Part shown: positions 3,773 through 59,761 of the stretch, piece after piece
Layout: every line of letters begins with the position of its first letter
Position numbering within the stretch: the stretch's first letter is position 1
Source of the DNA: Defluviitaleaceae bacterium
Lineage (GTDB): Bacteria > Bacillota > Clostridia > Lachnospirales > WRAX01
Direction of reading: 5' to 3'
Assembly: GCA_009785595.1 (NCBI GenBank)
Contig: WQVZ01000001.1
Span: 149 to 64,148, forward strand
Length of the DNA stretch: 64,000 nucleotides
Position numbers and translations under genes: made by a program
The notes under the pieces: model-generated
What the model was told of the DNA's origin: nothing
Databases searched by the model: none
The model's input: only the letters and a program-made list of their open reading frames with translations

Positions 3773-3937
3773 CCCTCCCACCAACCCGGCCCCATGACAG
3801 CAAAGCTGTCATGGGGCCGGGTTGGTGGGAGGGCCAGGGGGCCACTTGGGGGCCACCGCGGGCGAAGCCCGCGGTGGCCCCCAAGTGGCCCCCTGGCCCC
3901 AGATTTTTGATGGCCTTCGGCCATCAAAAATCTGGGG
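3773..3937. repeat. triple perfect-palindrome module 1
   Basis: H1 3773-3801/3805-3833 (29 bp, loop AAA). H2 3834-3863/3867-3896 (30 bp, loop GAA, centre GCGAAGC). H3 3897-3915/3919-3937 (19 bp, loop TTC). The hairpins abut with 0 nt between them and have no mismatches (checked by hand). The module lies between convergent genes. Confidence 0.95.
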
Positions 3938-4424
3938 CTTTTAAAAACTTGGTGTGCTTGAGTGCATATCCGGCGATAAGACCTACAAGCACACCAGTAA
4001 GTACTCCGGCTATAATCAGCACAGGAGCATAATAAAACAGGCCCGCGTTTTGCACAATAAGAGCAGCCACTACAATCTGTCCTATATTGTGAAAAACCCC
4101 ACCCCAAACACTTACACCAACCACACCAAAGATTTTCACCCTTTTGGCCAAAACCATGGCAGCATAACTTAAAATACCACCGGACAGACTGTAAGCTACG
4201 CTAAAAGGGGAACCAAAAAGCAACCCTATTGCTACTATGCGCAAGACAGATATGCCAAGAGCCGCTTTGGATCCCATGGCATAAAGGGCCATAACAACTA
4301 TAACATTAGCCAAGCCCAGCTTCACCCCGGGAACAGGTATAGGCATAGGGAAAAGTCTTTCTATATAGGCGGCCACCATAGCCAGCCCGCCCAATATGCC
4401 AAAATATGCTATCTTTTTTGCCAT
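3924..4424 (-). CDS. Gx transporter family membrane protein
   Basis: ORF-track 3924..4466 trimmed to ATG 4424, which has GGGAGAG upstream; the longer start lies inside palindrome module 2. The protein is multi-TM and Gly-rich and resembles the Gx transporter family usually paired with NusG_II proteins. The last codons and the stop lie in the right arm of module 1 hairpin 3. Confidence 0.72.
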   Translation of the reverse strand: MAKKIAYFGILGGLAMVAAYIERLFPMPIPVPGVKLGLANVIVVMALYAMGSKAALGISVLRIVAIGLLFGSPFSVAYSLSGGILSYAAMVLAKRVKIFGVVGVSVWGGVFHNIGQIVVAALIVQNAGLFYYAPVLIIAGVLTGVLVGLIAGYALKHTKFLKAPDF

Positions 4425-4460
4425 CGCGCTCTCCCATTGTTCCACTCTTTTTGTTGATTG

Positions 4461-4631
4461 CCTCAAGGCCGGTTCTACTGTTTCGCGAAGCGAAACAGTA
4501 GAACCGGCCTTGAGGCCTTAGCCCAACCAGAGTGCGCTTTGCGCACTCTGGTTGGGCTAAGGCCTCCCCCTCTCCTCCAGTCATCCCACACCCCCTTTGG
4601 GGGTGTGGGATGACTGGAGGAGAGGGGGAGG
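4461..4631. repeat. triple perfect-palindrome module 2
   Basis: H1 4461-4486/4490-4515 (26 bp, loop GAA, centre GCGAAGC). H2 4516-4537/4541-4562 (22 bp, loop TTT). H3 4563-4595/4599-4631 (33 bp, loop TTT). The hairpins abut and have no mismatches. The module sits between two co-oriented minus-strand genes. Confidence 0.95.
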
Positions 4632-4650
4632 CAAAATTTATATTGCTATA

Positions 4651-5007
4651 TCACGTGCCATTGCGTAATTCCACAATAACGCGGTTTGGCAGGCATGTTA
4701 TGGTTTGCCAAATATTTGAAATCGGCCCCATCCTTATACAATATTGGTCAGGGCAGTCTGCATAAACCATACGCACCCTGCCGCCGCTTATCATTATCTC
4801 ATTATGACCGCGCTCTGTTTTAATACGAAAAATCTCCCCGTCATTTCGCCTGATGTCCACAGCCAAAACCTCCACACCATCTACATGCACCGCCACAACA
4901 GACCCCTCACGTCCGCCTACAATAAGAAAAATAAAAATCAGAGATATGGCCAATAATATGAGTAGCACAATAAGTACCACATCTGCCCGCTTCAAAATCT
5001 CCGCCAC
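4651..5007 (-). CDS. NusG domain II-containing membrane-anchored protein
   Basis: 118 aa with a GTG start. N-terminal TM helix followed by ...CPDQYCIRMGPISNIWQTITCLPNRV, the Cys pattern of NusG_II (former DUF1312) proteins. Confidence 0.75.
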   Translation of the reverse strand: MAEILKRADVVLIVLLILLAISLIFIFLIVGGREGSVVAVHVDGVEVLAVDIRRNDGEIFRIKTERGHNEIMISGGRVRMVYADCPDQYCIRMGPISNIWQTITCLPNRVIVELRNGT

Positions 5008-5071
5008 TGTCGTATTTCCCCCAAGTTTTCATAAACTGATTATACCATACCACAACCCAAGGAGCTTTTCC

Positions 5072-5911
5072 ATGAAAAAATTTGGCCGCTTTCTGTATGC
5101 CCTATACGGTAAAATCAACGAAAATGAGATTTTGCCCCTGGCCACCCAACTTACCTATCGCCTGGTTTTCTCACTGTTCCCATTCATCATCTTTCTAATA
5201 TCCTTGGTAGGTTTTTTTGAAATAGACCCGGAATTTCTATTGGATGAAGTTTCCGGCCTTTTCCCTGCGCAAATAGCCCAGGTGATAAACGATGTTATAT
5301 ATGACGTGGTAGACACCCGCAACCCCAGCATAATGTCCACCAGCTTACTTTTTTATATTTTCACCGTGGCCAGCGGCTTTCGTGCTGTCATGCGAGGCAT
5401 ACACAAGGCCTATGATCAAGAAGACACCCGTAATGCCGTTGTGCGCTGGCTTTACTGTACCTTGCTGGTTATAGCTCTGGCTCTGGCTATTGTCTCTTCC
5501 TTGTTGGTTATCATTTTCGGCGACACCATCTACAGCCTTATTGACCGTTATTTCCACTTCAACGGCTTTTTTGTGGTAATCTTCGGCTTTACCGGGGTGT
5601 TAATAACCATAACCATAATGCTGGCTGTAATTATCCTCATTTATCGCCTATCTTACTCCAAAAAGCAGACCATAATATCCCTGCTGCCGGGTGCTATGTT
5701 TACCCTGGCCGTCTGGGCCATATCCTCTTCGGCCTTTAATTTCTGGGTCAATAACTTCTCGCGCCATTCCCTTATATACGGCTCTATCGCCAGCATTTTC
5801 ATTACCATGCTGTGGCTTAATATCATATCTGCCACAATTTTAATAGGGGCGCAGACCAATGCGTTACTAAGCGTTCATTCGGGCGACCGAGGACGGTCAC
5901 CCCTACAATGA
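5072..5911 (+). CDS. YihY/BrkB family membrane protein
   Basis: ORF-track 4853..5911 trimmed to ATG 5072, which is preceded by AAGGAG. Multi-TM with LTYRLVFSLFPFIIFLISL. The last ~10 codons are encoded by a REP-like hairpin (5881-5908). Confidence 0.8.
   Translation: MKKFGRFLYALYGKINENEILPLATQLTYRLVFSLFPFIIFLISLVGFFEIDPEFLLDEVSGLFPAQIAQVINDVIYDVVDTRNPSIMSTSLLFYIFTVASGFRAVMRGIHKAYDQEDTRNAVVRWLYCTLLVIALALAIVSSLLVIIFGDTIYSLIDRYFHFNGFFVVIFGFTGVLITITIMLAVIILIYRLSYSKKQTIISLLPGAMFTLAVWAISSSAFNFWVNNFSRHSLIYGSIASIFITMLWLNIISATILIGAQTNALLSVHSGDRGRSPLQ
5881..5908 (-). repeat. REP-like hairpin, family copy A1
   Basis: The minus strand reads TTGTAGGGGTGACCGTCCTCGGTCGCCC: an 8-bp stem with one mismatch and a 6-nt loop. 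It overlaps the 3' ends of the convergent yihY-like and comF-like genes. Confidence 0.8.
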
Positions 5912-6571
5912 CGCGACGGCAAAGACGATAAGGCTTACGGACTTTGCCCCGCTGGCTTTCAGCACCCCGACACATTCCGCTACCGTGGCCCCTGTGGTCA
6001 AAATATCATCCACCAGCACCACATCCCTACCCTCCACACAAAAGCCGTCTTTAAGGGCAAAAGCCCCCGCCACATTGGCGGCACGCTGGTGGGGATTAAG
6101 CTCAAACTGTTTTGCCGTGTCCCTTGTGCGCACCATGCCATCATAGGCAGGTAGAGCCATAGGGCCAGAAAGCTCCGCCGCCAGCAAGGCTGCCTGGTTA
6201 AAGCCTCTTTCCTTTATGCGTTTTGAATGCAATGGCACCGGCAGCAAAAAATCCGCATCGATTTTGCCAAAACGGCCAAAAATCAAACCAGCCATAGGGC
6301 GGGCCAGCACCCGCTTGCCTTCGTATTTATACCGAAAAACCGCATGGCGCACCGCCTCGGAATAATCACAAGCGGCGTAAATGCGGCAACCACCTTCGGG
6401 GGCTTTTGTCTCAACACGAGCAGCCATCTCGCAGTCAGCGCACGTAATTTCGGTGGGATTATCCAAAACTTTTCGGCAAAACAGACACTTGTTGGGAAAT
6501 ACCGCCCCATATACCATTTGAAGTGCCACCATTCCGGCGGTTTTTTTAAGCAAGAATTTATCATTCATCAC
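5903..6571 (-). CDS. comFC: ComF family protein (phosphoribosyltransferase domain)
   Basis: 222 aa. N-terminal CxxC...CxxC and C-terminal PRTase motif VVLVDDILTTGAT. The start overlaps the recD2 stop (ATGA). Confidence 0.85.
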   Translation of the reverse strand: MMNDKFLLKKTAGMVALQMVYGAVFPNKCLFCRKVLDNPTEITCADCEMAARVETKAPEGGCRIYAACDYSEAVRHAVFRYKYEGKRVLARPMAGLIFGRFGKIDADFLLPVPLHSKRIKERGFNQAALLAAELSGPMALPAYDGMVRTRDTAKQFELNPHQRAANVAGAFALKDGFCVEGRDVVLVDDILTTGATVAECVGVLKASGAKSVSLIVFAVASL

Positions 6572-8859
6572 ACATCACCATACATCTGCCGGTGTAGCCG
6601 CTCGATACGATATTTTAAGGCGGAATACCTCACACTTTCCCTCACATTGTCCACCATGCGGCGCAATGTACCCGCCACGCCCACAATAACCACCAGCTTT
6701 TTTGCCCGGGTTATAGCAGTGTATAATAAATTGCGGTTTAGCAACATGGGCGGTCCGCTGTGTATGGGCAAAACCACAATGTCATATTCCGATCCCTGGG
6801 ATTTGTGTATGGTTATAGCATATGCCAGCACCAACTCGTCCAGCTGGCTGGTTTCATAATCCACCAGCCTGTCGTCATCAAAGCGCACCTGCACAGCACC
6901 GGCGGTGTCGATGTGGGTTATTATCCCCTCGTCGCCGTTAAACATGCCGCAACCCTCTTCTGCCAAATTCCCCCTATCGTCCATAATACGCCACTGTATG
7001 TTGTAGTTATTTTTTATCTGCATCACTTTGTCTCCCTGGCGAAAAACAAAGCTGCCCATCTGCTTTTCCCCTTTGGCAAATGACGGCGGGTTAAGGGCCT
7101 CTTGCAGCAATATATTAAGATTTGCCACGCCCGCGGCAGACTTTCGCTGGGGCGTAAGCACCTGTATGTCCCGCATAACATCTACCGGCATAAACTTTGG
7201 CAGGCGGCTTGCGGCCAAATCTGCCACGGTGGCCACTGCGCGGTTTATGTCGTGTTCTTGTATAAAGAAAAAGTCCGAATCCTTTTCGTTAAGCATGGGG
7301 TAATCGCCACGATTAACACGATGGGCATTCATAACAATGGCACTTTCGGCACTTTGGCGAAAAATCTCATCCAAATACACCACCCGCACTTTGCCGCTTT
7401 CTATTACATCCCGCAACACATTACCCGCCCCCACCGACGGCAACTGGTTTACATCACCCACCAATATCAGCCGTGTGCCGCGTTTTATACTTTTTAACAG
7501 GCGGAACATCAGCATCACATCCACCATGGAGCTTTCGTCCACAATAACACAGTCCTCTTGTATCATCATGTCGTCGGGCAATTCTTCTTTAGACAGCGGC
7601 CTGTTGCTATCTGTCGTATGGATACCCAAAAGACGATGGATGGTAGACGCAGACATACCCGTGGTCTCGCTCATGCGCTTGGCCGCCCGCCCTGTTGGGG
7701 CGCACAACACAATACGCTGGCCCATTTTGCGCATAATGCGTATGATGGTATTTATGGTAGTTGTTTTGCCCGTACCCGGCCCGCCGGTTATTACCAACAC
7801 GCCATTGGTCAGGGCCTCTTGCACGGCGGTTTTTTGCAGGCGCGCTAGGGTTATGCCGGCTTCGCGCTCGGCTTCGGCTACGTCAGCTTCTACATCGCCT
7901 TGGTCGGTTAGGGCGGTGTTAAGCTCCAAAAGCTTCTTGGCAATATAAATTTCGCCATGGTAGTAGGCAGTAAGGTATATCACAATTTCGGTGTCGTCGT
8001 CAGAAGCCGGGCGATCAGGAACAATCGCCCCTACAATTTTATCCTGCTTGATATCTCCCGCCACTTGCATTTGCAACAGCTGGTTTTCTACCTCTGCCAT
8101 CTCCAAGGCAAGCAACCCCTGTGCTTTCTCCAAAAGCTGTGCCTTTGGCAAATACGTGTGCCCATCACCCAAAGCATCCGACAACACATACTTTACCCCC
8201 GCCCAAATGCGATTAGGTGAAAAATGAGGTATACCCGCCTTGACGGCAATAGCATCTGCAATTTTAAAACCTATGCCAAAAATATCCTCTGCCAGCACAT
8301 ATGGGTTGGTTTTTACCACGTCTATGGCGTGTATGCCATACCGCTTGCAAATTTTATCACTTTGGCCCACGGTAAGCCCCAGACCCTGCAAATACATCAT
8401 GGTATTGCGCTGGGCGGATTTTTCTATAAATTCCTTGCCAATATCCCGCGCCAGCTTCATGGTTATGCCTTTTATCTCTGACAGCCGCTCCGGCTCGTTT
8501 TCTATCACATCAAATGCCGCCAGGCCAAATTTGTCCACAATAAGCTTGGCCCGCTTGGCCCCAACGCCCTTAATAGCACCGCTGGCCAGGTATTTTTCCA
8601 TGCCGGACACGGTTTTGGGCATAATGCGCTCTATTGCCTGCACCTTAAACTGCTGGCCGTAGGTGGGGTGTACAACAAAAAGGCCCGTCAGCCTAACGTC
8701 CTCTCCCTCGTTAACCAGCGTGCCCGCCGTGCAGGTAATTTCCTGCGTTCCATCGCCCTCGTCCAACTCTCGGTTTATCACAAAAACAGAAAAGCCCGTC
8801 GCGTCGCTTTGGTATATTATGTTTTCCACATTACCTTCAATGGTTTCGATTTGCTCCAT
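6568..8859 (-). CDS. recD2: RecD2-type SF1B ATP-dependent DNA helicase
   Basis: 763 aa. Walker A ITGGPGTGKTT, LILVGDVNQLPSVGAG and C-terminal AITIHKSQGSE. Confidence 0.92.
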   Translation of the reverse strand: MEQIETIEGNVENIIYQSDATGFSVFVINRELDEGDGTQEITCTAGTLVNEGEDVRLTGLFVVHPTYGQQFKVQAIERIMPKTVSGMEKYLASGAIKGVGAKRAKLIVDKFGLAAFDVIENEPERLSEIKGITMKLARDIGKEFIEKSAQRNTMMYLQGLGLTVGQSDKICKRYGIHAIDVVKTNPYVLAEDIFGIGFKIADAIAVKAGIPHFSPNRIWAGVKYVLSDALGDGHTYLPKAQLLEKAQGLLALEMAEVENQLLQMQVAGDIKQDKIVGAIVPDRPASDDDTEIVIYLTAYYHGEIYIAKKLLELNTALTDQGDVEADVAEAEREAGITLARLQKTAVQEALTNGVLVITGGPGTGKTTTINTIIRIMRKMGQRIVLCAPTGRAAKRMSETTGMSASTIHRLLGIHTTDSNRPLSKEELPDDMMIQEDCVIVDESSMVDVMLMFRLLKSIKRGTRLILVGDVNQLPSVGAGNVLRDVIESGKVRVVYLDEIFRQSAESAIVMNAHRVNRGDYPMLNEKDSDFFFIQEHDINRAVATVADLAASRLPKFMPVDVMRDIQVLTPQRKSAAGVANLNILLQEALNPPSFAKGEKQMGSFVFRQGDKVMQIKNNYNIQWRIMDDRGNLAEEGCGMFNGDEGIITHIDTAGAVQVRFDDDRLVDYETSQLDELVLAYAITIHKSQGSEYDIVVLPIHSGPPMLLNRNLLYTAITRAKKLVVIVGVAGTLRRMVDNVRESVRYSALKYRIERLHRQMYGDV

Positions 8860-9675: not shown

Positions 9676-10674
9676 TCACCGCTTTTTCTTATCCGTACCC
9701 ATAAATTCCACATACCTGCCGGTGCCAAGCGCCACACAGCTTGCGGCAGACTCCGCAATAACGGCATCAATGCCGATTGTATGCTTAATCAGCTTATCCA
9801 GTCCGTAAAGTAGGGCGCTACCACCGGTCATCACCAAACCTCTGTCGGCAATGTCGCTGGCCAGCTCCGGCGGGGTTTTTTCCAGCACAGAATGTATTGT
9901 CTCCATAATGGCCGCCACAGGTTCTTTAAGGGCTTCCAACATATCGTCAGAACTTACGCTTATGGTGCGGGGCAGGCCCGTCACCAGGTTGCGCCCTCTT
10001 ATCTCCATGCGGGCGTCCCCTTGACGTTTAAATGCCGCCCCCACGTTTATTTTCAGTTCCTCAGCCGTGCGCTCACCTATAAGCAAATTATGCCGCTTGC
10101 GCATAAATCTTATAATAGCTTCGTCAAAATCATCACCGGCTGTTTTGATGGAAGCATTAACAACACAGCCTCCCAGAGATATTACGGCCACATCCGTGGT
10201 GCCACCGCCCATGTCTACTATCATAGAACCTCTGGGTCTTGAAATATCAATGCCGGCACCTATAGCGGCAGCTATGGTTTCTTCGATGATGAAAACCTGC
10301 CGCGCGCCGGCAGATTTTGCGGCATCTTCCACGGCCCGCTTTTCAACTTCCGTCACGCTGGTAGGCACACAAACAGAAACCCGCGGCTTGCGCATTGTGC
10401 CTATGCGCCTGCTGGCTTTTTTAATGAAATATTTAAGCATTTGCTCGGTAATTTCGTAATCAGAAATAACCCCATGCCTCAACGGCCGCACGGCCACTAT
10501 ATTACCCGGTGTGCGCCCCAGCATTTTGCGGGCATCATGCCCCACGGCAATAATGCTGCTGTTGGTTTTGTCCACAGCAACAACAGACGGCTCTTCCAGC
10601 ACAATGCCCTTGCCTTTTATATACACCAGTGTATTGGCTGTACCCAGGTCAATGCCCATATCTTCAGAAAACAT
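9676..10674 (-). CDS. mreB: rod shape-determining protein MreB/Mbl
   Basis: 332 aa. GIDLGTANTLVY... actin-like ATPase signature. AGGAG lies upstream. Confidence 0.93.
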   Translation of the reverse strand: MFSEDMGIDLGTANTLVYIKGKGIVLEEPSVVAVDKTNSSIIAVGHDARKMLGRTPGNIVAVRPLRHGVISDYEITEQMLKYFIKKASRRIGTMRKPRVSVCVPTSVTEVEKRAVEDAAKSAGARQVFIIEETIAAAIGAGIDISRPRGSMIVDMGGGTTDVAVISLGGCVVNASIKTAGDDFDEAIIRFMRKRHNLLIGERTAEELKINVGAAFKRQGDARMEIRGRNLVTGLPRTISVSSDDMLEALKEPVAAIMETIHSVLEKTPPELASDIADRGLVMTGGSALLYGLDKLIKHTIGIDAVIAESAASCVALGTGRYVEFMGTDKKKR

Positions 10675-33154: not shown

Positions 33155-33178
33155 ACCGGCCGAATAGGCCGGTTTTTT
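33155..33178 (+). terminator. glnS intrinsic terminator
   Basis: ACCGGCC gaata GGCCGGT followed by TTTTT. Confidence 0.8.
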
Positions 33179-33230
33179 ATTTGGATAAAATCTTGCCCAT
33201 TAGAACAGACTATTTTATAACTTTATAAGT

Positions 33231-33414
33231 GGCCCACACTCCACTCCCACCCACCCATTTGGCGGCAAAGCCGCCAAATGGGTGGGTGGGAGTGGAGTGT
33301 GGGCCTGGGGCCGGAGCCCTGGGAGCCGCTGGGGCGCGTAGCGCCCCAGCGGCTCCCAGGGCTCCGGCCCCAGGCCCCGTGGAGAGCAAGCCTACGGCTT
33401 GCTCTCCACGGGGC
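33231..33414. repeat. triple perfect-palindrome module 4
   Basis: H1 33231-33266/33270-33305 (36 bp, loop AAA). H2 33306-33337/33341-33372 (32 bp, loop GTA, centre GCGTAGC). H3 33374-33392/33396-33414 (19 bp, loop TAC). No mismatches. There is one unpaired g between H2 and H3. Confidence 0.95.
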
Positions 33415-56026: not shown

Positions 56027-56131
56027 CCACGGTTCGTTTACGAACCGTGGACACCCACGCTTTGTTTACAAAGCGTGAAGAAGTACGCTGCGTTAACGCA
56101 GCGTAAAACCCACGGAGCGTTAACGCTCCGT
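56027..56131 (+). repeat. array of four tandem short hairpins (28-29 nt period)
   Basis: u1 56027-56050 CCACGGTTCG-TTTA-CGAACCGTGG. u2 56056-56077 CACGCTTTG-TTTA-CAAAGCGTG. u3 56084-56105 TACGCTGCG-TTAA-CGCAGCGTA. u4 56112-56131 ACGGAGCG-TTAA-CGCTCCGT. Spacers are 5-6 nt. Confidence 0.9.
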
Positions 56132-59730: not shown

Positions 59731-59761
59731 ATACAGGGGCGGCCAACGGCCACCCCTGTAT
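59731..59761. terminator. long triloop hairpin between convergent genes
   Basis: ATACAGGGGCGGCC aac GGCCACCCCTGTAT: 14 bp with one mismatch and a 3-nt loop. Confidence 0.45.

Follow-up and report, generated by a model that had tools for sequence, protein, structure and literature searches.

The DNA analyzed here is a 64,000-nt window of contig WQVZ01000001.1 (assembly GCA_009785595.1) from an uncultured, gut-type Defluviitaleaceae bacterium, and on its minus strand a gene for a NusG_II-domain protein lies directly upstream of a gene for a Gx transporter. The spacer between these two genes is occupied by a 173-nt block at positions 4460-4632, here called module M2, that consists of three abutting perfect hairpins. 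A repeat finder applied to 4300-4800 showed that the arms of each inverted repeat are 100% complementary, with 3 nt between them. A preliminary description, drawn from the sequence alone, had recognized the module and its three perfect stems, and these stand; the ends that it gave (4461-4631, 171 nt, with gaps of 19 and 36 nt to the flanking genes) fall one base short on each side, and its stem lengths of 26, 22 and 33 bp, which roughly correspond to counting shared bases once, are replaced by measured values of 27, 26 and 34 bp in the same order. Thus defined, M2 is separated from the NusG_II stop codon (4651-4653) by 18 nt and from the Gx ATG (4424) by 35 nt, and the Shine-Dalgarno motif (SD) of Gx falls within that remaining gap, as had been suggested.

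Read on the transcribed strand, hairpin 1 has a C-rich 5' arm (22 C, 2 G), and hairpin 3, which has the lowest G+C fraction within M2 (0.58), is followed by AATCAACAAAAAG, without a U-tract. Hairpin 2 has GAGGC/GCCTC in common with both of its neighbors, in 5-nt overlaps between adjoining hairpins, and GCCTC and GAGGC alternate at every hairpin boundary of the module. The loops, GAA, TTT and TTT on the plus strand and AAA, AAA and TTC on the minus strand, are as previously reported. M2 is predicted to fold with a minimum free energy (MFE) of -189 kcal/mol as RNA (z = -23.9) and -112 kcal/mol as DNA (z = -24.4), and the predicted mRNA fold contains three perfect duplexes of the lengths given above. 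Because 100 shuffles of the window produced no perfect hairpin of at least 12 bp with a 3-nt loop, compared with 12 observed, chance is excluded. The observation of a triple hairpin at M2 is confirmed.

The twelve hairpins belong to four triplets, since the architecture of M2 recurs in the window at three further places, designated M1, M3 and M4 (Table 1). Their stems range from 19 to 50 bp and total 371 bp, with no mismatches and no G-T pairs. All twelve loops are 3 nt long, and each is enclosed by two G:C pairs, nine of these centers having the form GC-NNN-GC and three the form CC-NNN-GG. At each of the eight internal junctions the adjoining hairpins have 3-5 nt in common, and the hairpins within a module end in the same short word or its complement (GCCTC, GAGGC, TGCC, GGCA, GGGCC, GCCCC and CCCTC). 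Elsewhere in the 64 kb there are no perfect hairpins of 12 bp or more, and only two imperfect ones with 13 pairs. In a 100-nt sliding fold, the four modules have energies between -90 and -105 kcal/mol, the mean for the window being -22 +/- 9. All four are intergenic, except that M1 overlaps the end of the Gx open reading frame (ORF) by 15 nt, and they occur in both orientations. Their contexts comprise the interior of an operon (M2), the interval between a complete terminator, the canonical one of glnS at 33155-33173, and a gene start (M4), and two convergent gaps (M1 and M3), with M3 leaving 4 and 7 nt of the gap between the RidA and M23 peptidase genes. M2, like M4, is co-oriented with transcription.

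Table 1. Coordinates, in window positions, of the hairpin modules and of the features of the NusG_II-Gx unit
Feature	Coordinates	Strand	Remarks
M2 hairpin 1 (first on the transcribed strand)	4562..4632	-	Arms 4562-4595/4599-4632; stem 34 bp, perfect
M2 hairpin 2	4512..4566	-	Arms 4512-4537/4541-4566; stem 26 bp, perfect
M2 hairpin 3	4460..4516	-	Arms 4460-4486/4490-4516; stem 27 bp, perfect
Sister module M1	3773..3938	+	Stems 29, 33 and 20 bp; lies between the convergent LCP and Gx genes, filling the gap
Sister module M3	26305..26525	+	Stems 32, 50 and 28 bp; fills the convergent gap between the RidA gene and the M23 peptidase gene
Sister module M4	33231..33414	+	Stems 36, 37 and 19 bp; 26 nt before the L,D-transpeptidase ATG
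NusG_II-domain gene	4651..5007	-	PF07009, E 1e-26; 118 amino acids from a GTG start (gene caller start 4995)
Gx transporter gene	3924..4424	-	PF07456, E 3e-39; 166 amino acids, full Pfam coverage
Gx SD, GGGAGAG	4429..4435	-	24 nt downstream of M2; unpaired in the predicted fold
Candidate extended -10 of the NusG_II-Gx unit, TGGTATAAT	5039..5047	-	Noted by eye; no call by the scan; no -35

The kinship among the modules lies in architecture and composition. No k-mer longer than 9 is common to the twelve hairpins, and arm-by-arm alignments compared with shuffles gave no significant similarity (z of at most 2.4 in 18 comparisons). The 5' arm of the first hairpin is C-rich and G-poor, that of the second is G-rich in three of the four modules, and the third hairpin is shorter across modules. 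Earlier claims that M2 matches its sisters in hairpin order and loops are supported, and the related claim that the least G+C-rich hairpin comes last holds for M1, M2 and M3 and does not extend to M4, in which the first hairpin has a G+C fraction of 0.67 and the third 0.71. In all four modules the C-rich hairpin adjoins the stop codon of the incoming gene, which is weak evidence of a rule, as only M2 and M4 are informative. Loop orientation varies between modules (AAA or TTT). There are some likenesses in sequence: M1 and M4 both have a third hairpin starting with GCCCC, their second hairpins start with GGGCCAGGGGGCC in one and GGGCCTGGGGCC in the other, and their loop sets are AAA/GAA/TTC and AAA/GTA/TAC, respectively; M2 and M3 resemble each other at the stem bases (GCCTCAAGGCC and TGCCAAAGGCC). 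These resemblances are not significant alone and amount to weak hints of relatedness. The arms of the second hairpins of M1 and M4 (3831-3863 and 33301-33337) include short tandem repeats, about 10-11 nt in period, which are exactly mirrored in the opposite arm. In M1 this is an internal tandem duplication in which GGGGGCCAC occurs twice, and in M4 the repeated units are GGAGCC/CTGGG.

Several smaller features lie near the modules or resemble parts of them. Just upstream of M4, at 33193-33221, the arrangement TTGCCC-17-TATAAC was noted by eye; the scan makes no call there, the last base of the -10 element not being T. If this weak lead is a real promoter, the 184-nt triple hairpin of M4 would form the 5' leader of the L,D-transpeptidase mRNA. 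Two single hairpins with a GGCC-NNN-GGCC center and a 3-nt loop resemble the third hairpins of the modules and are possibly ordinary terminators or single-unit relatives of the modules. One of these, at 59731-59761 after a gene end, has 13 bp with one mismatch, and the other is a perfect 18-bp hairpin between convergent genes on the part of the source contig beyond the window (6239-6277 of the retrieved segment L166). A second intra-operon hairpin array of this genome occupies the 142-nt spacer between lepA and a hemN/hemW-like gene, where four small perfect tandem hairpins recur about every 28 nt at 56027-56131, their loops being TTTA, TTTA, TTAA and TTAA. Its units have a common CACG..CG-TTWA-CG..CGTG frame, the stem middles varying on both sides between units, and a comparison of the array with Rfam gave no match.

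The gene pair that M2 separates is strongly conserved. The evaluable loci, drawn from species-representative genomes, metagenome contigs and three closer relatives located through protein look-ups, number 159. In 154 of them Gx is immediately preceded by a NusG_II ORF on its own strand, the median length of the spacer being 35 nt, in agreement with the earlier statement that the two genes are normally adjacent. The spacer of the source genome is the second longest in this survey at 226 nt, and by far the most structured, with an MFE of -182 kcal/mol compared with -63.5 kcal/mol at best elsewhere.

Both genes of the pair also have unusual ends. In an alignment with five relatives, each of which continues for 9-14 residues beyond ...ELRGG and ends in a conserved (M/V)D(I/V)(I/V)xH/Q, the source NusG_II protein stops at ...ELRNGT (4651-4680 region) without this tail, and the 18 nt that precede M2 do not encode it. 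At the other end of the unit, the last four codons of Gx and its stop (APDF*) lie inside the third hairpin of M1. On these comparisons, the modules have rewritten both gene ends, truncating NusG_II and supplying Gx with a new C-terminus. This carries a warning for annotation, in that such blocks can rewrite gene ends and break k-mer assemblies at predictable points.

Relatives provide a view of this spacer with and without hairpins. The closest Gx proteins are 55% identical among species-representative genomes and 73% identical in a large protein collection; in the latter relative, the nearest, MetK is 75% identical. None of the 80 Gx loci from species-representative genomes (best identity 55%) or the 80 from metagenome contigs (best 61%) has long perfect G+C-rich hairpins; the source species is absent from the former set. 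In six family-level lineages with Gx proteins 61-73% identical to that of the source, the spacer contains hairpins in three and none in the other three. In locus L082 there is one perfect 17-bp stem with an 11-nt loop that begins at the stop codon; in L172, a 115-nt spacer holds four small hairpins nested within an 18-bp outer inverted repeat (-63.5 kcal/mol); and in L175/L176, two independent assemblies, a 156-nt spacer holds five small perfect G+C-rich hairpins with 3-4-nt loops (-75 kcal/mol). None of these structures has a U-tract or an Rfam match, and in L172 and L175 no other 100-nt window of the 20-kb locus is as stable as that of the spacer. The lineages without hairpins have spacers of 21 nt (L084), 12 nt (L177/L178) and 106 nt (L086, unstructured). 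The comparison with relatives in which the two genes are contiguous, which the preliminary description had proposed, identifies M2 as an addition at a site where hairpins are present in some lineages and absent in others.

One of these relatives, L175 (Gx 66% identical; ENA and Joint Genome Institute assemblies agree), carries at least four families of dispersed short hairpins, G+C-rich and perfect with loops of 3-4 nt, the copies of which differ by paired changes and flipped loops. They comprise GCCGGC-TWWA-GCCGGC (three copies), CGACT-NNN-AGTCG (two copies, with the loop flipped), GGCGAGC-TGY-GCTCGCC (four copies) and GGCGRCC-TGY-GGYCGCC (two copies), which sit in different intergenic spacers of one 20-kb segment (hairpins at 7920-7944, 8187, 14554, 14651, 14673, 15351, 15914 and 9864-9975), and the hairpins of the NusG_II-Gx spacer are members. 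The core of the last family is found on the source contig as well, at the center of a perfect 18-bp hairpin. These families look like the repetitive palindromes of the repetitive extragenic palindromic (REP) and bacterial interspersed mosaic element (BIME) type, and no prior description of such elements in Defluviitaleaceae was found in the literature searched.

The relatives differ from the source in two other respects. Their Gx-LCP spacer contains a conserved noncoding block with three tandem DnaA-box-like motifs (TGTGGATAT, TGTGGATAA and TGTGGAAAA; about 10596-10640 in L082, 10600-10650 in L084 and 10529-10583 in L172); in the source, this spacer is filled by M1, and no such cluster occurs anywhere in the 64 kb. 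In addition, a flagellar block from flgM to csrA lies upstream of a BrkB-like gene in L082 (773-8535), L084 (932-8701), L172 (51-6745) and L175 (1-6418). In L082 and L084 it is situated between ComF-like and BrkB-like genes, which in the source (about 5900-6570) are adjacent, with no flagellar genes between them.

We hold, with about equal measures of belief and doubt, that M2 is a lineage-specific palindromic DNA insertion of a REP/BIME-like kind that is kept perfect at the DNA level and transcribed through; its mode of arrival, the DNA-level homogenization of its arms and its read-through are what we infer. Established are its structure and authenticity, the operon setting, its lack in some relatives, the damaged gene end and the want of a U-tract or promoter. 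M2 would belong to a class of G+C-rich modules, each with three hairpins, that colonizes the A+T-rich intergenic spacers of this genome, and this copy would have landed in the short NusG_II-Gx spacer, removing the last 9-14 NusG_II codons. During replication its arms would be homogenized by intrastrand template switching or arm-to-arm conversion, with RNA-level selection not the cause; either process would copy changes to the other arm, and could lengthen arms and flip loops. Maintenance at the DNA level is suggested by the 371 bp without mismatch or G-T pair, because selection at the RNA level alone would tolerate G-U pairs, and template switching is suggested because tandem duplications are mirrored in the partner arm and loops occur in either orientation. 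Template switching is known to create and repair perfect stems (PMC8794818), and two further sources describe it as homogenizing arms and inverting spacers (PMC8604942) and as capable of expanding inverted repeats (PMC13100816). A promoter upstream of NusG_II would then transcribe through M2, yielding an mRNA that bears three very stable stem-loops between cistrons and from which Gx would still be translated, its SD being left free. Any altered protein ratio, whether through pausing, RNase III cutting or 3'-end protection of the upstream cistron, would be a by-product, not the reason for the presence of M2. The preliminary description had offered two explanations, an uncoupling of the two genes and a tolerated selfish insertion, and it is the second that gains more from the evidence now at hand: spacer hairpins are present or absent among relatives; dispersed families exist in L175; the NusG_II tail, kept in all five relatives, has been lost in the source, which points to a damaging insertion; and the sister modules occupy quite different contexts (M4 after a full terminator, M1 and M3 between convergent genes), which argues against a single RNA function.

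Several points weigh against an insertion of this kind. The twelve hairpins share only composition (best z = 2.4), whereas a family moved by a transposase normally consists of identical copies. At the flanks of the four modules, no target-site duplication or common target is visible beyond A+T richness, and there is no transposase or RAYT/Y1 gene among the Pfam-annotated genes of the contig parts retrieved. The portion of the source genome considered here, including the window, is 73 kb of one uncultured genome, which limits what can be concluded about copy number and mobility. At M1 and M3, barely 11 nt or so of the gap between the convergent genes lies outside the module, and there the modules may be the only terminators available, or the only bidirectional barriers. 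The placement of the C-rich hairpin by the stop codon, together with the common composition pattern of a C-rich arm, G-rich arms and a mixed hairpin, hints at constraint beyond neutrality. Finally, in work cited in PMC3733652, SbcCD-type nucleases cut stems of 8-16 bp in Escherichia coli; the stems of the modules are well above this length, and so their persistence needs explaining.

An artifact of assembly or library preparation might be suspected because the window is the reverse complement of part of a short-read MEGAHIT contig of an uncultured organism (k141_366381; ENA ERZ27257300, 87,098 bp), and because its exact proteins are found, outside this assembly, only in Logan contigs of two samples, one of which is SRR10512955. 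We consider the chance of this close to negligible. Logan contigs from that run, built by a different assembler at k = 31 and carrying identical genes, reproduce gene-to-module junctions, one complete hairpin and one shared junction: L171 extends from NusG_II through 30 nt of the first 34-nt arm of M2, where it ends; L169, coming from RidA, stops exactly at the final base of the first M3 arm; and L174 contains the whole first hairpin of M1 (29-bp arms), the GGG junction and 29 nt of the next 33-nt arm. These contigs pass through arms shorter than k and break in arms of at least 31 nt, as a k = 31 graph is expected to do at true palindromes. All four modules, moreover, fall precisely in intergenic DNA, and the deposited Gx protein carries the C-terminal residues encoded by M1. 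The more specific notion of a hairpin-adapter artifact of the library was dropped, as the sequences are unique and intergenic and the second assembler agrees. It is likewise very unlikely, if somewhat less so, that M2 is an overbuilt but ordinary intrinsic terminator that ends the NusG_II transcript, with Gx expressed from a promoter of its own. The proximity of M2 to the stop codon (18 nt) and its G+C-rich stems would suit such a role, M1 and M3 are probably the sole structures between their convergent genes, and it has been proposed that hairpins clustered near stop codons form termination units even where U-tails are lacking (PMC8355165). However, no T-run follows any of the three hairpins: the first two run straight into the next stem, and the mRNA strand after the last reads AAUCAACAAAAAG, which is not U-rich. 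The scan calls no terminator-like site in 4425-4650, although the genome uses canonical terminators elsewhere, such as that at 33155-33173, and it predicts no promoter-like site in M2 or in the 35 nt, SD included, that remain before the Gx ATG. Given this and the conserved adjacency of the pair (154 of 159 loci, median spacer 35 nt), Gx would have to be transcribed through M2. On these predictions, M2 lacks two defining features of a Rho-independent terminator, namely the U-tract and a position at the end of a transcription unit with a separate promoter for the next gene. The preliminary description had called a plain terminator explanation awkward, and it remains so; a promoter in 4425-4460, which it had named, together with a lack of co-transcription in relatives, as the observation that would favour such a terminator, is not predicted by the scans.

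A different possibility, which we regard as unlikely though worth serious consideration, is that M2 is a selected intercistronic RNA device that sets the NusG_II:Gx expression ratio by polymerase pausing or partial termination, by offering double-stranded RNA to RNase III, and by capping the upstream cistron against 3' exonucleases and the downstream one against 5' decay. Strong hairpins without a U-tract recur at exactly this spacer in three other lineages, being the most stable structure of the 20-kb locus in L172 and L175; M2, as M4, is co-oriented with transcription; and Gx is intact over the full Pfam model with its SD unpaired in the predicted fold. RNase III requires about 20 bp or more of uninterrupted double-stranded RNA, for which the predicted perfect duplexes of M2 (26-34 bp) would be ideal, and REP and Correia elements are reported, in references listed in PMC3733652, to stabilize or process mRNAs. 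Against this role, three relatives manage with unstructured spacers of 12-106 nt; no G-U pair occurs in 371 bp; modules of this kind also stand in places that call for no intercistronic control, M4 for example following a complete terminator; a conserved tail of NusG_II was lost through the insertion; and no Rfam family exceeds its threshold. The hairpins could instead have been made de novo by self-templating, without being copied from a master element, which we consider improbable. In such a cycle, a single-stranded 3' end would be extended with biased, low-complexity sequence, snap back on a mini-hairpin of two G:C pairs and a 3-nt loop, copy itself to its own base, fray 3-5 bp into the previous stem and repeat, with the product fixed perhaps during break repair. 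This would account for the two G:C pairs around 3 nt at all twelve centers, the 3-5-nt overlaps at all eight internal junctions, the low-complexity arms with short internal repeats, the modules that lack homology yet have a common composition order, and the A+T-rich flanks without target duplication. On the other hand, the contig holds no candidate enzyme, no bacterial process is known to give exactly three units, the weak hints of common descent between M1 and M4 favor a diverged family, and the relatives carry ordinary repeated small hairpins. A more general proposal seems to us quite doubtful, namely that the triplets are an undescribed class of bacterial element defined by architecture (three abutting perfect hairpins with the centers and shared junctions described above) and not by sequence, and that every copy is newly made or rewritten in a self-templating cycle in which DNA folds back and is extended (or RNA is copied into DNA), without a master sequence. 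If true, it would represent a bacterial source of de novo, nonhomologous structured DNA inserted into operons.

Perfect palindromes with arms of 19-50 bp are normally unstable in bacteria. In this genome there are four triplets of them in 64 kb, one of them within a conserved operon whose downstream gene would have to be read through it, and M2 offers an existing test case for the amount of perfect secondary structure that can be tolerated between the cistrons of an operon.

M2 belongs to no named family, lacking the defining features of REP sequences, miniature inverted-repeat transposable elements (MITEs), attC sites, clustered regularly interspaced short palindromic repeats (CRISPR) and intrinsic terminators, and the size of the twelve hairpins together with their lack of shared sequence sets them apart from every described family. 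attC sites are imperfect hairpins with extrahelical bases and R and L boxes, in a cassette array beside an integron integrase; the stems of M2 are perfect and without bulges, and there is no cassette array or integrase among the annotated neighbors. A CRISPR array was rejected in view of the lack of direct-repeat families in 4300-4800, a protelomerase site in view of the asymmetric 3-nt centers and the number of sites (12), and a riboswitch or leader in view of the lack of conservation and its absence in relatives. Rfam returned only sub-threshold matches to eukaryotic miRNA precursors (for example mir-4716, 54.6 bits against a gathering score of 76). Searches of viral contigs with exact arms, and of plasmids and phages with the module by blastn, gave no matches, and an origin from a mobile element or a phage is therefore not indicated. 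A protein search with the open frame through M3, which could detect modules miscalled as genes elsewhere, found nothing.

Each of the systems that the modules resemble differs from them in some essential respect. Correia and other bacterial MITEs lie beside or between genes, are co-transcribed and contain long duplexes that RNase III can cut, altering the expression of neighbors, as might be the case for the modules; in contrast to the modules, they have terminal inverted repeats, target-site duplications and conserved sequence. In terminators built as hairpin clusters, a stop codon is soon followed by at least two hairpins spaced only a few bases apart, with no constant U-tail (PMC8355165), but these terminators have short stems and mark operon ends, whereas M2 lies within a conserved operon, with no promoter predicted for the gene that follows. 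Mitochondrial hairpin elements, such as the GC clusters of yeast, the double-hairpin elements of fungi and the repetitive hairpin elements of sponges, are also G+C-rich hairpins that invade A+T-rich spacers and are left in transcripts; they are lineage-specific and sometimes double or triple, with conserved stems and variable loops (PMC2800124). They are found, however, in organelle genomes, their stems are 8-18 bp in elements of up to about 84 bp, and they form repeated families within a genome. Template-switch (quasipalindrome) mutagenesis would explain the perfect arms, the two-sided changes, the inversion of spacers and the growth of arms, but it is a mutational mechanism and not a class of element, and it leaves unexplained the three-unit architecture and the G+C content within A+T-rich spacers.

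Of the systems compared, M2 is closest in behavior to REP/BIME, although it is far larger and sequence-unique. Both are G+C-rich intergenic palindromes, single or in clusters of two or three and in either orientation, and they often lie between genes that are transcribed together or where the ends of genes converge. Both are parts of mRNAs, in the case of the modules by prediction, and REP sequences have reported effects on mRNA stability and attenuation that the modules might share. The modules are likewise extragenic, clustered, found in both orientations and present or absent among relatives, which themselves bear, in L175, small dispersed hairpin families of REP/BIME type at the same spacer. 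REP sequences, however, have imperfect stems of 5-13 bp with a conserved unpaired GTAG or CGTC tag and form high-copy families, often linked to a REP-associated tyrosine transposase (RAYT; PMC3733652), whereas the stems of the modules are flawless over 19-50 bp and without such a tag, the units abut via shared bases and not linkers, and no two of the 12 hairpins in 64 kb share sequence, so that a many-copy family is not evident. Should the modules turn out to be numerous across the genome and each unique in sequence, the REP/BIME concept would reach into Clostridia-type Firmicutes, structure alone would suffice to define a class of palindromic elements, and there would be a natural system in which to study how DNA-level template switching builds and maintains long RNA stems.

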